Positions 13,037 to 48,208 of a stretch of DNA of 64,000 nucleotides are shown here, in pieces. Origin of the DNA: a virus; IMG/VR virus record IMGVR_UViG_3300032271_000682, positions 25,796 through 89,795 of that record; one strand, given 5' to 3'. Under the pieces are notes generated by a model. That model did no database searches, was not told the origin of the DNA, and worked only from the letters and a program-made list of their open reading frames with translations. Position numbers and translations under genes: made by a program. Within the stretch, counting starts at the first letter, position 1, and each line of letters begins with the position of its first letter.

Positions 13037-13042
13037 ATGTTT

Positions 13043-13440
13043 TTAAAGAATTGTTGTAAACCCTGAGTAATCAGGACAGAAGTAAAGAGAAAAGTGTCCA
13101 AGACGAGGGTTCGATTCCCTCCAGCTTCACCATAAAGGGATTACATGAATTACATTGACAATACAATAGTGCTTGAAAACGGCAGAACAGTACATTATAC
13201 AAAAGATGTATCTAAAATGTCGCTTAAAGAAGCTAATAAAATGTTAGTCACTATTAGAAAGTCTCTTTATGATGGGGCTGACCAGGTTTCGATTGGGCAA
13301 AGAGTAACGGAATGGACAACTCGACACAGATAGTCGTAAAAAGTAAACAACCAATAAATGCTAACGATGAAAATTGGGCATTAGCCGCTTGAAAAAGTTG
13401 CTTAGGGTAGGAAATACCTCGTAACAGAAAATACCAATAG
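13043..13440 (+). ncRNA. ssrA: Circularly permuted (two-piece) tmRNA; tag ANDENWALAA
   Basis: T-arm gagggTTCGATTccctc and CAGCTTC-A-CCA ending 13132 precede the 5' end GGGGCTG at 13274; tag frame 13360-13392. Confidence 0.93.
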
Positions 13441-13464
13441 GGACTTTCGAGTCCCTATTTTTTT
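13436..13464 (+). terminator. Intrinsic terminator after tmRNA
   Basis: aatagggact-ttcg-agtccctatt followed by T run. Confidence 0.9.
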
Positions 13465-13497
13465 GACGATAAATACAGTATATGTTAGAGTATCACA

Positions 13498-22970: not shown

Positions 22971-25900
22971 ATGTCAGACATTAAAAAATTTATGGATATC
23001 ATGATGGAAACTACCGCTGGAGCAACCTCTAGTGGTTCAGTCGCTGAAGTATCTCAGCCAATGATGTCTACTCAACGAAGAGTAAATCCTAGTATCTATA
23101 CTAATCAAGCTTCAAAATCTGATGATCATTGTCCTGAGTGTAAATGTAATCCATGTGAATGTCATGAAGCAAGCAGAAAAGCTCCAACAGCACCAAAAGC
23201 AAAAGAATTTGGTTTATGGCAAAATAGCGTATTAGCTGGAAAAGCACAAAAAGATAAAAAAACTAAAAAAGAAACCAATGAATCAGTTAAAATTTTAAAA
23301 ACTACTAAAACTCCTACTGGTAAGCAAGTACAAGGAAATTACGGTCTAGATTATCAGCCGGAAGAAAAACTAGATATGTACGGGCACTCAATGAGAGGAA
23401 GTCCAAAGTTACATTCTCCTAGAATCCCTGACAATAAATATCCTGGACAAGGACCTGGACGCCCTGAAAATATTAGCTCAACTGATGCATTTGACGTTTT
23501 AAAAAAAGATCCATTTGGTCGTGACAGCAATATGACAGAAGATGATCTAGAAGAAGATTGGGAAGACATTAAGAATGCTGGTAAAAAAACAATTGGGGCT
23601 GGAGCAATAGGGTTAGCAGCATTAGGCGGAGGCGGAACGCAAGCACAAACCGTTCCTGCTAATACAGGTACAAACGTAGCTCAAACACAGTCGGTTTCAT
23701 CTAATGCAGCAATAGTAAAAAGTTTGGTGAATCCCGAGGCACGACAAAGATTCTTAAAACAACACTCGGATACTACGGCTCAATTAAAAGATCCAAAATA
23801 TGATCATAATCCAGATGCTTTAGCACAACATGCAACTTATCCTAAAGAACAACATAGTCAATATATACAAAATGTCAAGAATGTGGCAGAATTTCAAAAT
23901 CCCTATCAGATTATTCGCACTGCGTTAAACATGGCAGGATTAACTCCACAGGAAGTTTTACAAAATCTACCTAAAGGATACAAACTTCCATCAACAGAGC
24001 CTAAATCTGAGCCAGTGCGAATTCCAGGTGATCCAGGATACAAAGCACCGGTAAACGAATTTAAAAAATCTTCAAGAAATATTAATGAACTTGAATATGG
24101 TCAAGGTCAGCGCCAACTAAGATTAGCAGAAGTAGATGATAAAAGTGAACTAGATAGCTCTGGTATTCAAAGAATTATCAAAAAAATGGCGGCTAAACAT
24201 CAAGACGAAAAATGGACTAAAGAGCAGTTAGCTGCATTAGGTAAAAAATTAGCAGCGGCTGGTCGTAGAGAAGAAGAACGTAAGAATAAAAAGGGCGTTA
24301 AAGAAACAGCAAACAAACCTAAATCTCCAAATCGTAATGATCCATGGGAACAAGGTTGGTCTGCTGCTCATCGACTTCAAAGCAACTATGAGTGTCCATA
24401 TAAAAAAGGTACCGCTGAGTACGAGCGTTGGATGAATGGTTACGAAGAAGGCAGCTCACAACGTGGACATTATGATGAAAGTGTGAAGGAAGGCTCTGAT
24501 CAACAGTTAACGATTCAACAGTTAGCTACTATCAGTGACGAAGCATTAGACAATGCTTATCACTATGGTCGTAGCACACCGGGAAATACATTTGGTTGGC
24601 AGGCAAATTTAAAATCTGCTGCTTATGCTAAACAAATGATTGATAAGGGTATCACTGATATTGAAGCAATTAGTGACGCTATTCATAAAGGATGGAATGT
24701 TACTGCTAAAGCATTTGTACAAAATCCTGATAAATTTGACGACACAAAAAAATTAAAAGCAGCTGGCAAACTAGAAGCAAAACTTCAACAACGAGAAAAA
24801 TTGATGAACATTGGTTATAGTCAATTACCAGACGAAGAACAAGAAAAAGATCGTGTAGTTGCTAGAGCGTTATTACAAGCCATTACAGGTCAACAAGATA
24901 TGTCTGAAGCAGTAGAAGATCATACTAAAATCAAAGTTGATAGAATATCATCTAAATATCCAGGAACAAATATTTTAACTGGGAGTTCGTCCGTTCGTGT
25001 TGGAAGAAAGGGAAAATCTTCAATTGGAACATTTCCAACTTTTGAAATAGATGGACACAGATATATAACTCTTGCTGACGGAAATAAAATAGAAAGAGCG
25101 TTGAGACAAGATGTAGCGGAAGACCTAGAAGAAAGCAAACGCACAATGAGTCGTGCTGCTAAGGGTAATGAAAAGTATGGTAAAGATGGAATGCAGGCAT
25201 TAGCCAAAGCAGGTCGTGAAGGTAAAGATTTAGATAAAATCAGAGCCAAGTATAACAAATATGACGAAGACATTGAAGAAGGTTGGAGTCAAAAATACAA
25301 AAATTCAATCAACTGCTCACATCCTAAAGGATTTTCACAAAAAGCACATTGTGCAGGAAAAAAGAAACACAACGAATCAATAGAAATGGAAATGACTTGT
25401 GAAGATTGTGGTATGTGTAAAACACACGGAGATCATAATCACAACGCTCTTGATGAAGCCTGTTGGAAAGGTTATCACAAAGAAGGTATGAAAACTATGT
25501 TTGGAAAAGAATACCCTAACTGTAAAAAAAATAAAAATGAGAGTCTAGAAACTTATATTCGTAAAGGTGAGTGTCCTGGGTGTGGAGGATCAATGATTGC
25601 TGAAGGGCAATTAAACGAAAAACAAGATGCGTGTTATCACAAAGTAAAATCAAGATACAAAGTGTGGCCTAGTGCTTATGCGTCAGGAGCATTGGTTCAA
25701 TGTAGAAAAAAAGGTGCTGCCAATTGGGGTAACAGTACAAAAAAAGAATCCATTGATCTAGATGAAAATCTACATGACTGGTTCGGAAAAGAAAAATGGG
25801 TGCGTATGGATACGAAGGGCAACATAAAAGGCCCTTGCGCTAGAGGTTCAAAAAGTGAAGGTAAGCCCAAGTGCTTACCACAAAGCAAAGCACACAGTAT

Positions 25901-41157: not shown

Positions 41158-42378
41158 ATGACTCAAATATTACACTGCTCATTCTGCACTAAACACAAAA
41201 ATGCCGTTAAAAAATTAATTGTAGGCGAAAGTTCGGCAATCTGTGACGGTTGTATAACATATTGTACCGAATTGCTCATCACTGATGACGAAATCGATAA
41301 AATTTCTGAATCATCACATTCATCATTATATCCAGATGATATTAAACGATTCTTGGATGAGTACATAGTCGGACAAGATCACGCAAAGAAAATCATAAGT
41401 GTCGCCGTTTCTAATCATTACAAAAGAATCAATAATAAAAGCGACACCATAATACAAAAAAGCAACGTACTAATAGTTGGCCCAACTGGGTCTGGAAAAA
41501 CTCTGCTTGCTAAAACTGTAGCAAAATATCTAGACGTACCATTTGTAATCGCAGATGCCACCTCATTAACTGAGGCTGGATACGTTGGCGATGATGTCGA
41601 ATCAATGATCGGTAGACTAGTAGCAGCGGCTGGAGGCGACATTGAAAGAGCGCAACGAGGCATCGTATTCATTGATGAAATTGATAAAATTTCTAGAAAA
41701 TCAGAGGGCGCATCTATCACTCGTGATGTAAGCGGTGAAGGCGTTCAACAAGCTCTACTTAAATTAGTAGAAGGAACTGTTTGTAGAATTCCACAACGTG
41801 GCAGAAGAAAAAATCCTAGCCAAGAAATGCTAGAAGTAGATACTACTAACATTCTCTTTATTTCTGGCGGAGCTTTTGTTGGTCTTAAAGATATAGTTGC
41901 TAATCGTATTGATGGTAACAGTATTGGTTTTTCTGCCAATCTTTCAGATAAATCTCAAGATCAAAATTACTTAGAAAAACTAATGCCAGATGATCTGACT
42001 AAATTCGGAATGATACCAGAATTTACTGGTCGCTTTCCTAGTCTAGTCAGCATTACTGAACTTAATAAAGAACAACTAATTAGTATTCTTACTAGCGTAA
42101 AAAATAATTACATTCAACAGTATGTATATCTTCTTGGACTAGATAATATAGAATTGACTTTTGGTTCAGACGCAATAGATCAGATAGCAGAAAATTGTTT
42201 GAAATTAAAGACAGGCGCTCGTGGATTACATAGTGAGATTGAACGAGTATTACTACCACATATGTACGATGCTCAAAGTTACCAAAAGAACAATATAACT
42301 AAGATAAATATCACTAGAGAATTAGTTGACAAACCAAGAATATTAACAGAGGATGTAAATGAAGGTAATAAATCATAA
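41158..42378 (+). CDS. clpX: Clp protease ATP-binding subunit ClpX
   Basis: CSFC/CDGC Zn domain, [31 protein letters not shown] loop, TGARGL. Confidence 0.95.
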
Positions 42379-43782: not shown

Positions 43783-44346
43783 ATGGCAACTTGTCTGACA
43801 TGTAATAAAGAGTTTGAAATTCGTCCATGGTTCAAACAGTATTGCTCATCTGATTGTAAGGGTGCTATTAATGCAGGCATGCCGGCTTGGAATAAAGGTC
43901 TGAAAATGACTGATGAACAAAAGTCAAAAATGAATTTAGAAGGATTTAAATTGGGTTGGGGTTGGAATAAGGGTATACCAAATGAAATTGCTAGACAAAG
44001 AATGATCATTAATAACCCAAACAAAGATGGAAAGGTAAATAATTCTAGACCAAAAAAACTGATTGAAGATGAATTCATATTATATAAAAGAGAATGTAAG
44101 AAAGCAACTTATAGATCATGGTATAAAATGAAAAAAGAAGGATTGATTCCAGAAAATACTGGGAAAAGAAAAGATCAATTTCAACTTGATCATATTATCC
44201 CATTCAAACAAGGATTTGATTTGAAAATAGATCCTAGTATTATTGGTGGAATGAAAAACTTAAGATATATTTTAGGTGAAGATAATCGTAAAAAATGGGA
44301 TAGTTATCAGCCCATCAATGTTGTAACTAGTATTATAGGAGATTAA
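43783..44346 (+). mobile_element. Free-standing HNH homing endonuclease with NUMOD3-type repeats
   Basis: N-terminal CxxC...CxxxC; PAWNKGLK and GWNKGIP repeats; QLDHIIP...NL...N HNH core. Confidence 0.85.
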
Positions 44347-44347
44347 A

Positions 44348-44756
44348 ATGGCATATTCGGCTGCTGTACTGGATCATTATGAAAATCCAAGAAATGTAGG
44401 ATCATTTGATAAGGAGGAAATAGCGCAAGTGGGAACCGGCATGGTCGGTGCTCCCGCTTGCGGTTAACGGAGATGTAATGAAGTTACAAATCAAAGTCAT
44501 TGATGGAATTATTACAGATGCTAAGTTTAAAACATACGGGTGCGGTAGTGCCATTGCCAGTTCATCATTAGTCACTGAATGGGTCAAGGGAAAAACTCTT
44601 GATGAAGCAGCGACAATTAAAAACACTCAAATCGCTCAAGAACTCGCTCTTCCGCCGGTCAAGATTCACTGTTCAATACTTGCAGAAGATGCTATTAAAG
44701 CTGCTATAGCAGATTATAGGAAAAAGCATGATGTTATCTCTGAAGTATTGGCCTGA
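44348..44756 (+). CDS. iscU: Fe-S scaffold IscU, interrupted by a 7-nt insertion (stop + frame change) at 44465-44471
   Basis: Frame A 44348-44467 MAYSAAVLDHYENPRNVG...GAPACG*; frame +1 continues GDVMKLQ...FKTYGCGSAIASSS...LPPVKIHCSILAEDAI. Confidence 0.9.
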
Positions 44757-45618: not shown

Positions 45619-46056
45619 ATGACAAGAACGCTAACTCTCAGAAGTCTGGACATTCCGTCCATTGCCAAATTCGGAATTGGTTTTGAAAATTCATTCGCTG
45701 AATTACTCAGATTATCCGAACAACAATCCAACACAAATTATCCACCGTATAATGTAGTCAGACAAACTGATGATAAGTTTTATATTGAAATTGCCACTGC
45801 TGGATTTACTCAGGGCGAAGTCAAAGTTGAACTTGACAATCAGTTATTGACAATTGTTGGTCAAAAATTGGATAATTCTACGGTAGAATATCTACATCAT
45901 GGTATATCCAATAGAAGTTTTGAAAGAGTTTTCAAATTGGGTGAATATGTAGAAGTAACTGATGCTCAACACAAAGATGGAATTCTTACTATCTATTTGG
46001 AACGACATATTCCGGAAGCAATGAAGCCAAAAACGATTGACATTAAGTATATTTGA
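45619..46056 (+). CDS. Small heat-shock protein (Hsp20/IbpA-like)
   Basis: NYPPYNV, EIATAGF, YLHHGISNRSFER, DGIL. Confidence 0.93.
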   Translation: MTRTLTLRSLDIPSIAKFGIGFENSFAELLRLSEQQSNTNYPPYNVVRQTDDKFYIEIATAGFTQGEVKVELDNQLLTIVGQKLDNSTVEYLHHGISNRSFERVFKLGEYVEVTDAQHKDGILTIYLERHIPEAMKPKTIDIKYI

Positions 46057-47557: not shown

Positions 47558-48208
47558 ATGATTATAACGCAAGGAACATATATGATCAAAGATGTTACGG
47601 AAGAATTAGATAAAAGTCCAGGAGATGCTCTTAGATCAAATGGAATGTACGTTTTTATGGACGAAGTAAATTCAGAAACCATAAAGCCAGTAATTGAATG
47701 GATTTTATATGAAAATTATGTTTCCGTTCCGCGTAAAAAAGAATTACTGTTAATGATATGTAGTGAGGGTGGAGACTTATCTGCCGCATTTGCTCTTATT
47801 GATACAATGAAATCCAGTCAAATTCCAATTAAAACGGTAGGTCTTGGATTAATTGCCAGTTGTGGATTATTGATTTTTATTGCCGGAACAAAGGGTCGTC
47901 GTGTACTAACGCCAAATACCAGTATACTGAGTCATCAGTTTTCGGCTGGATCAGAAGGAAAAGCTCATGATTTATTTGCCACAGTCAAAGAGTTTGAACT
48001 CACTCAAGTACGAATGATCAATCATTATAAAGAATGTACTGGACTGTCCGAATCAATGATTAAAGAAAAATTACTACCGGCACAAGATATATGGCTAGAT
48101 GGCGAAGCAGCTCTTGAACTAAACATATGTGATGCCATATCAGAATCAAATTCTAAAAATGAATCGTCAAAAAAATCAAAAAAATCAAAAATCACTCTTC
48201 CAAAATAG
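47558..48208 (+). CDS. Divergent ClpP-like protease subunit
   Basis: ICSEGG, IASCG (Ser), LSHQ (His), QDIW (Asp). Confidence 0.85.
   Translation: MIITQGTYMIKDVTEELDKSPGDALRSNGMYVFMDEVNSETIKPVIEWILYENYVSVPRKKELLLMICSEGGDLSAAFALIDTMKSSQIPIKTVGLGLIASCGLLIFIAGTKGRRVLTPNTSILSHQFSAGSEGKAHDLFATVKEFELTQVRMINHYKECTGLSESMIKEKLLPAQDIWLDGEAALELNICDAISESNSKNESSKKSKKSKITLPK

Follow-up and report, generated by a model that had tools for sequence, protein, structure and literature searches.

Organization of the Interrupted iscU Locus

The DNA analysed here is a 64,000-nucleotide stretch (the window, with a G+C content of ~35%) of the 89.8-kb IMG/VR viral contig IMGVR_UViG_3300032271_000682, corresponding to positions 25,796 to 89,795 of that record. 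The CheckV estimate of completeness for the contig was 26%, and the phage is therefore probably very large. The window contains an iscU gene (44348-44756) that is broken by a stop codon after 39 codons and continues in the +1 frame. The subject of this analysis is a 17-bp hairpin and a Shine-Dalgarno (SD)-like motif, both located in the coding sequence upstream of the break. The iscU gene is preceded by an alpha/beta-hydrolase-like open reading frame (ORF), a small ORF and an ORF of 187 amino acids (43783-44346), and is followed by the genes for peptide deformylase (pdf) and IscA (iscA). The Pfam check of the neighbouring genes covered pdf, iscU and iscA. The features of the interrupted gene and of the ORF directly upstream are as follows.

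43783-44346, plus strand: ORF of 187 amino acids for an HNH-like putative homing nuclease, ending 1 nucleotide (nt) before the iscU ATG.
44348-44464, plus strand: iscU ORF1 of 39 codons, taken from the ORF list, ending in ...GAPACG on the take-off codon; Pfam NifU_N, profile positions 1-35, E = 9.5e-10.
44411-44417, plus strand: internal SD-like AAGGAGG, 6 nt 5' of the base of the hairpin.
44424-44462, plus strand: 17-bp coding hairpin with an 11-bp outer stem, a GC bulge, a 6-bp inner stem and an ATG loop, supported by minimum free energy (MFE) folding, a synonymous control, allele comparison, covariation and RNAalifold.
44462-44464, plus strand: take-off glycine codon GGT, whose first base (G1) closes the hairpin; GGN in all alleles.
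44465-44468, plus strand: stop codon TAA (44465-44467) and a 1-nt spacer, C (44468), forming the putative hopped gap.
44469-44471, plus strand: landing glycine codon GGA in the +1 frame; GGN in all alleles.
44472-44756, plus strand: iscU ORF2, from DVMKLQ... to the stop; Pfam NifU_N, profile positions 35-124, E = 6.2e-36.

Omitting positions 44465-44471 restores ...APACG-DVMKLQ..., which is the reading of 68 alleles that lack the insert.

The Hairpin in the Window

The outer stem of the hairpin is formed by CGCAAGTGGGA (44424-44434) and TCCCGCTTGCG (44452-44462), which pair over 11 bp with one G.U. The inner stem is formed by ACCGGC (44435-44440) and GTCGGT (44444-44449), which pair over 6 bp, again with one G.U. 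The loop is ATG, and the GC bulge occupies positions 44450-44451. Position 44462, at the 3' end of the hairpin, is G1 of the take-off GGT. RNAfold analysis returned this 17-bp hairpin as both the MFE and the centroid structure. The pairings, the coordinates and the hairpin itself had all been given correctly in an earlier reading of the window by a model that saw only the letters and their ORFs (the sequence-only reading), as had the observation that the 3' arm ends on the first G of the GGT before the stop.

The 47-nt stretch folded at -27.9 kcal/mol (z = -4.7), and none of 200 dinucleotide shuffles was equally stable; in a 91-nt context, the z-score was -3.45. As the region encodes very conserved residues, synonymous recoding is the proper control, and folding against synonymous variants had been proposed in the sequence-only reading. 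Recoding of the 15 codons with the codon usage of the window gave a mean of -11.6 kcal/mol (standard deviation 3.1), and 0 of 5000 recodings reached -27.9 kcal/mol. The outcome was the same with uniform codon choice. The hairpin is not a coding by-product. Seven of the 15 codons in the stem region are rare, at 7-16% of their synonymous family in the window (GCG 7%, GTG 11%, ACC 9%, GGC 16%, GTC 11%, CCC 8% and TGC 16%), the seven being those that the sequence-only reading had named as unusually GC-rich choices for an AT-rich genome.

Interrupted iscU Alleles in Viral Contigs

A protein scan of viral contigs guided by ORF2 identified 80 loci, mostly with an uninterrupted iscU. Among these, L005, L016, L019, L060, L064 and L072 were broken at the exact codon of the window gene, with differing sequences. 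Two DNA-pattern scans of viral metagenome contigs were added, and in one of them the bases 3' of the stop were left free. The total came to ~96 interrupted loci from many metagenomes, with a few contigs represented twice and ~58 distinct sequences. An assembly or sequencing error was rejected as the source of the break on the basis of this recurrence in varied sequence.

The insert was composed in every case of a stop codon, 0-4 nt and a second Gly codon. The stop was TGA in 34 of the 58 distinct alleles, TAG in 13 and TAA in 11. By locus, the insert lengths were 6 nt (2 loci), 7 nt (52), 8 nt (29), 9 nt (11) and 10 nt (2), and all three frames were represented. The codon pair GGN...GGN was present in 58/58 distinct alleles, with identical take-off and landing codons in 24. 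Deletion of the stop, the spacer and one Gly codon restored ...APACG-DV(M/L)... in every interrupted allele. Both halves of iscU were intact across the ~58 diverged alleles, and the Gly-Asp-Val codons 3' of the gap varied only synonymously and were always in frame with ORF2. Met41 was replaced by Leu (CTT), with no other in-frame start, in 9/58 distinct alleles.

The conserved halves, the synonymous-only variation after the gap and the absence of a start in these nine alleles speak against gene decay and a split gene. The same three observations suggest that a single polypeptide is made across the gap. The break can be read as a hop of peptidyl-tRNA-Gly from GGN to GGN, a single mechanism that would cover all of the lengths and frames. 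The pattern of a 3' arm followed by a stop was also found in genome contigs, where the matches listed, taken irrespective of iscU context, were mostly from G+C-rich bacteria; the conclusions here cover viral contigs.

Conservation and Covariation of the Hairpin

The 45 nt ending at the take-off codon folded at -21.6 to -28.9 kcal/mol in all 31 distinct interrupted alleles (average of -25.1 kcal/mol), compared with an average of -12.6 kcal/mol in 68 distinct uninterrupted phage alleles (Mann-Whitney p = 5.5e-15). The number of paired outer-stem positions was 10-11 of 11 in the interrupted alleles and 3-9 of 11 in the uninterrupted alleles. The 3' end of the stem was G1 of the take-off codon in all interrupted alleles.

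Covariation, which the sequence-only reading had suggested looking for, was present in the stem. Across 23 distinct stem sequences, standard pairs were found in 95% of cells, compared with 28-41% when the partners were slid by 1-3 columns. Pair 9-39 was A-U in 13 sequences, C-G in 8 and U-A in 2, and pair 12-36 was U-A in 13, C-G in 6, G-C in 2, G.U in 1 and U.G in 1; neither was ever broken. Pair 15-33 likewise changed on both sides, giving three covarying stem pairs in all. RNAalifold, run independently, returned the same stem with a 10+4-bp consensus. On the opposite strand, several of the invariant G.U pairs would turn into C-A mismatches, and the structure therefore belongs to the sense RNA.

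The encoded protein differed at the positions of the stem. Residue -13 was an NCG codon (Ala, Ser, Pro or Thr) in 40/40 distinct interrupted alleles, and residue -12 was a CAN codon (Gln/His) in 40/40, while Gln or His was present at -12 in 1/68 uninterrupted alleles. The comparison indicates that the protein sequence at -13 and -12 is bent to fit the RNA stem. The only cassette-specific residues in ORF1 are these two and the loop residue, -7; ORF1 is otherwise the conserved N-terminus of IscU. The loop residue (window 44443-44445) was Met in 65/68 insert-less alleles, and in the insert-bearing alleles it was Met in 17, Leu in 14, Ile in 7 and Val in 2.

The SD-like Motif

The AAGGAGG at 44411-44417, to which the sequence-only reading had drawn attention, occurs once in the 64-kb window, both strands counted, where 3.65 copies were expected; a single copy is not significant alone, and the argument rests on the comparative data. 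AGGAG or GGAGG was present 5' of the stem in 35/37 distinct interrupted upstream sequences and in 0/68 uninterrupted sequences. The motif was written in two codon phases (AAG GAG and AAA GGA GAN) and three peptide contexts (Lys-Glu, Lys-Gly-Asp/Glu and Glu-Glu). Lys-Glu was encoded as AAGGAG in 22/22 interrupted versus 0/5 uninterrupted alleles, and Gly-Asp was encoded as GGAGAT in 11/11 versus 1/8. For the same dipeptides, the uninterrupted alleles favoured synonymous codons without GGAG. A real ribosome-binding site of this type is the iscU gene's own AGGAG (44337-44341), 6 nt before the ATG.

The gap between the core of the motif and the first stem pair was 3-4 nt in 40/43 distinct alleles, and 6 nt in the lineage of the window. 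The motif comes near the take-off codon only if the hairpin is counted as closed; the distances are then 3-6 nt to the take-off codon and 9-13 nt to the landing codon. A trade-off between the SD-to-stem distance and the insert length was looked for across the alleles, and none was found (Spearman 0.005).

The Putative Nuclease ORF and the Proposed Mobile Cassette

Homologues of the 187-amino-acid ORF, ending 4-10 nt before the iscU ATG, were present in interrupted loci. Among the 61 distinct interrupted loci with enough upstream flank, the ORF was full-length in 39, a remnant in 6 and absent in 16; it was present in 0/68 uninterrupted loci. The alignment of the family showed a conserved Cys4 N-terminus, WNKG repeats and a D-H...N...N C-terminus. 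Pfam HNH matched the window ORF with an E-value of 0.027, and 9/15 homologues matched (best 0.0011), all below the curated cut-off. The PHROG matches were phrog_5104 (function unknown) and phrog_1271 (HNH, E = 0.006). A Foldseek search with an AlphaFold model of the ORF gave no significant match, and the top VIA structural match was the HNH nickase 4h9d_A, with a Z of only 4.2. Across Pfam, PHROGs, a PDB profile search, AlphaFold/Foldseek and VIA, there were thus weak hints of an HNH nuclease. No second copy of the ORF was found in the contig.

The hairpin, the SD-like motif and the insert were kept in 22/61 distinct loci without an intact nuclease gene. As these elements outlast the nuclease gene, they serve iscU expression and not the nuclease.

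The syntenic uninterrupted relative L002 does not carry the nuclease ORF. Nucleotide identity to L002 was 93.5% in pdf and 77-81% in iscU (window 44337-44720). The divergence of iscU beside a similar pdf therefore suggests that a tract of ~43783-44690 was imported with the cassette, as expected for homing with co-conversion. In a tree of the 3' part of iscU, the interrupted and uninterrupted alleles interleaved, and the best tree had 23 state changes, of which 3 were forced by well-supported branches. In phylogenetically independent contrasts of the insert against the hairpin and SD-like motif, only 3 contrasts were supported, leaving the test underpowered.

The cassette comprises an HNH-like nuclease gene, a recoded 5' end of iscU with the SD-like motif and hairpin, a Gly codon followed by a stop, and another Gly codon 6-10 nt downstream.

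Interpretation and Proposed Mechanism

The hairpin at 44424-44462 and the AAGGAGG at 44411-44417 are probably RNA signals under selection, belonging to a mobile cassette for stop-hopping in the iscU of phages. On the sequences compared, the real evidence for selection is the covariation, the switching of the SD-like motif between codon phases and the forced amino-acid changes. The sequence-only reading had proposed that the hairpin is a selected cis-stimulator and not a random disabling indel; the allele comparison and the covariation support this, and stimulation itself is the inferred part.

In the proposed mechanism, peptidyl-tRNA-Gly on GGT, with the slowly decoded TAA in the A site, would release its codon, and the ribosome would slide by 7 nt, re-pair on GGA and continue, giving a normal IscU. 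At take-off, the ~11-12 nt 5' of the P-site codon would be inside the ribosome, and would correspond exactly to positions 44452-44462, the 3' strand of the outer stem, whose 5' strand would already have left together with the 6-bp inner stem. Each nucleotide of forward slip would then close one more G+C-rich pair in the manner of a zipper, pulling the mRNA forward and blocking backward movement. The modelled ensemble energy of the exited mRNA was -10.8 kcal/mol at first and -28.6 kcal/mol once nt -12 to 0 had left the ribosome, and the 7-nt slide gained ~7-13 kcal/mol, according to the channel length assumed. The geometry suggests that the stem forms during mRNA exit.

The SD-like motif may serve as an anchor, paired to the anti-SD and holding the 5' strand at the exit. 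It may also serve as a ruler, in that the fully zipped state would fit the landing position and not the take-off position. The 9-13 nt from the motif to the landing codon would be a normal distance from an SD to the P site, and the 3-6 nt to the take-off codon would be strained, like the spacing behind the forward shift of prfB. Tentatively, and with less confidence than the selection of the signals, we propose that the anchor and zipper could suffice for take-off from Gly at a stop and landing 6-10 nt on, with no need for an A-site stem-loop or a nascent-peptide signal. If true, the device would be a minimal, transplantable bypassing mechanism distinct from that of T4 gene 60, and the alleles would be the first natural family of stop-hops.

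Several points weigh against this interpretation. The 3' arm is inside the ribosome at take-off, and the zipper model depends on an assumed exit channel of ~11-12 nt. Counted along the linear sequence, 45-51 nt separate the SD-like motif from the take-off codon downstream of it, more than for any described SD stimulator; these act at 3 nt for +1 shifts and at 9-14 nt for -1 shifts. The L072/L086/L120 lineage has AAGGAT in place of the motif, and the insert is still kept. The sequence-only reading had named an equally stable hairpin in uninterrupted alleles as refuting evidence; the interpretation withstood this check in view of the averages given above, but a comparably stable fold was found at the same place in a single uninterrupted lineage, L075/L079 (-24.9 kcal/mol). 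All four parts (insert, hairpin, SD-like motif and nuclease gene) are physically linked and are likely to go back to a single cassette; their co-occurrence is therefore weak, non-independent evidence. Finally, the 5' stem-loop of the gene 60 homologues is poorly conserved and may be dispensable.

On the tree of the 3' part of iscU, L075/L079 was placed among the insert-bearing alleles. This allele may have lost its insert.

Alternative Explanations

The hop could be real and the hairpin and SD-like motif serve otherwise, either by pausing or throttling ribosomes before the stop, with effects on their spacing or on the ratio of the 39-amino-acid to the full-length product, or by stabilising the mRNA. 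Every ribosome must unwind a stem of -28 kcal/mol, an internal SD-like motif is able to detain a ribosome over several codons, and the gene 60 literature stresses ribosome spacing as a requirement for folding on the exit side. The lack of conservation of the 5' stem-loop among the gene 60 homologues also favours such a role. However, a generic roadblock or stability element would need no exact register with the recoding site, and the register observed is exact: in all alleles, the take-off codon provides its G1 as the 3' end of the stem, and the SD-to-stem distance is fixed at 3-4 nt. We consider this explanation unlikely, and yet the best placed of the alternatives.

A feature at the level of the DNA is a weaker candidate. 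The recoding could destroy the target of the nuclease (self-immunity) or represent the co-conversion tract of the donor, and the hairpin would then be incidental. The nuclease-like gene is found only beside insert-bearing alleles, the comparison with L002 points to the imported tract described above, and T4 mobA/gene 60 provides a precedent. However, immunity calls for a sequence unlike the target, which need not be self-complementary. At three stem positions, both partners change and pairing is kept, G.U pairs are tolerated on the sense strand only, and residues -13 and -12 are forced to NCG-CAN codons. The persistence of the hairpin and SD-like motif in the 22 loci without an intact nuclease gene also argues against an explanation at this level, which we regard as improbable.

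It is very improbable that no hop takes place, with iscU being a two-piece or decaying gene, or being expressed by termination and reinitiation with the hairpin bringing the SD near in the manner of a split ribosome-binding site. In T4, there are known cases of a hairpin that places an SD next to a start codon. Downstream of the gap, 49/58 distinct alleles have an in-frame ATG (Met41), and in the window a GGAG (44469-44472) is located 5 nt before it. This start is missing from the nine CTT alleles, however, and the Gly-Asp-Val codons that precede the Met show only synonymous variation, always in the ORF2 frame. A piece starting at Met41 would also be without the conserved Cys-Gly-Asp, residues that matter for IscU function. 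The intactness of both halves over the diverged alleles is counted against reinitiation and decay alike.

Least probable of all is a prfB-like +1 frameshift or stop readthrough in place of the hop. In its favour, the window shows a +1 shift where a stop occupies the A site, and a closed hairpin would bring the SD-like motif within a few nt of the shift codon, which resembles prfB. However, relatives have 6-, 8-, 9- and 10-nt versions in all frames, and the tRNA on GGT is unable to re-pair on GTT, the +1 codon that overlaps it. A +1 shift would also put Asn-Gly into the conserved Cys-Gly-Asp, and no single frameshift or readthrough event covers all of the lengths, as a Gly-to-Gly hop does.

Comparison with Known Recoding Systems

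Almost all that is known of programmed bypassing comes from T4 gene 60, where numerous signals are intertwined.

The signals described for T4 gene 60 include a 5' stem-loop and an SD-like landing aid, in an HNH-linked mobile cassette. Pairing of the exiting mRNA in the 5' stem-loop has been proposed to drive forward movement and block backward movement, a role that the zipper proposed for iscU would match; the sequence-only reading had cited stem-loops that refold behind the ribosome as promoting gene 60 bypassing. T4 gene 60/mobA is the closest system, and the iscU cassette resembles a miniature version of it. Both have a Gly take-off codon with a stop directly 3' and a Gly landing codon, and the single protein made from two ORFs in T4 would have its counterpart in iscU. 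An SD-like element is among the signals of both, and both have a linked free-standing nuclease gene of the HNH type (HNH-like here) with a patchy distribution among related phages.

The two systems differ in that the gap is 6-10 nt in iscU and 50 nt in T4 gene 60. The 5' hairpin abuts the take-off codon and shares G1 in iscU, whereas it is 9 nt upstream in T4 gene 60; it is the best-conserved signal in iscU and the least conserved among the gene 60 homologues. The SD-like element is upstream of the hairpin in iscU, and 6 nt before the landing codon in T4 gene 60. The host gene is iscU here, and encodes a topoisomerase subunit in T4. The iscU gap leaves no room for an A-site or take-off stem-loop of the gene 60 type, and none is conserved.

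Synthetic stop-hops have the same geometry of codon, stop and matching codon, and the 6-nt alleles L226 and L269 are exactly of this form. The synthetic hops depend on slow decoding of the A-site stop, as the iscU hop would; they are low-level and without stimulators, whereas the iscU hop, which we infer, would be fixed in a conserved gene with dedicated signals. The prfB (RF2) frameshift is similar to the proposed iscU hop in its A-site stop, its internal SD-like stimulator and the forward movement of the P-site tRNA, and the distance from the SD to the shift codon is ~3 nt in both if the iscU hairpin is counted as closed. In prfB, however, re-pairing is on an overlapping codon, the shift is always +1 and the SD is contiguous, whereas in iscU a 39-nt hairpin lies between and the shift would be 6-10 nt. 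The mitochondrial 'byps' of Magnusiomyces yeasts are likewise short non-coding inserts that are bypassed, resemble mobile elements and have many occurrences, but they are eukaryotic-organellar and longer, and have no linked SD-like motif or nuclease gene.

A 2016 review of the field knew of no natural occurrence of stop-hopping. In the full-text literature, no paper linking iscU with translational bypassing was found, and none was found on a phage iscU with a frameshift or a homing endonuclease. The iscU alleles offer dozens of natural variants of a far simpler site than gene 60, in which the stop, the spacer, the Gly pair, the stem and the phase of the SD-like motif vary. They raise the questions of whether mRNA folding behind the ribosome is able to pull the ribosome forward, and whether the anti-SD of an elongating ribosome is able to act across a hairpin. 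If the recoding is as proposed, iscU would be a second, independent case of a selfish nuclease cassette that renders its own insertion harmless.

Structures in and after the Gap

Folding from the take-off codon to +30 revealed no take-off or landing hairpin in or after the gap that was common to the alleles. The gap in the window is 7 nt, and no A-site or take-off stem-loop including the stop was found. A small 6-bp tetraloop hairpin was present in the TGACGGAGACGTCA lineages alone: with GGA-TGA-C-GGA-GAC-GTC-ATG (L019, L113, L128, L149, L106 and similar), the 6 bp and a GAGA loop (-7.8 to -10.9 kcal/mol) can enclose the stop and landing codons (take-off to +18); the allele of the window is unable to form it. 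A weak A+U-rich hairpin of 6 bp with the loop GAA was identified at window 44474-44488, 3 nt past the landing codon, and is present in several lineages, not all. This hairpin may correspond to the 3' barrier of gene 60, or may have arisen by chance.

Other Features of the Window

ARAGORN analysis found no tRNA genes in the 64-kb window, and hence no phage tRNA-Gly was seen there. A phage-encoded tmRNA gene was predicted by the same program at window 13040-13483 (plus strand), with the tag peptide VKSKQPINANDENWALAA. Three further ORFs, judged by eye from their translations, are ClpX-like (41158-42378), small heat-shock (Hsp20)-like (45619-46056) and ClpP-like (47558-48208). Together with the peptide deformylase, IscU and IscA, they would make up a cluster of host-like protein-quality-control genes.

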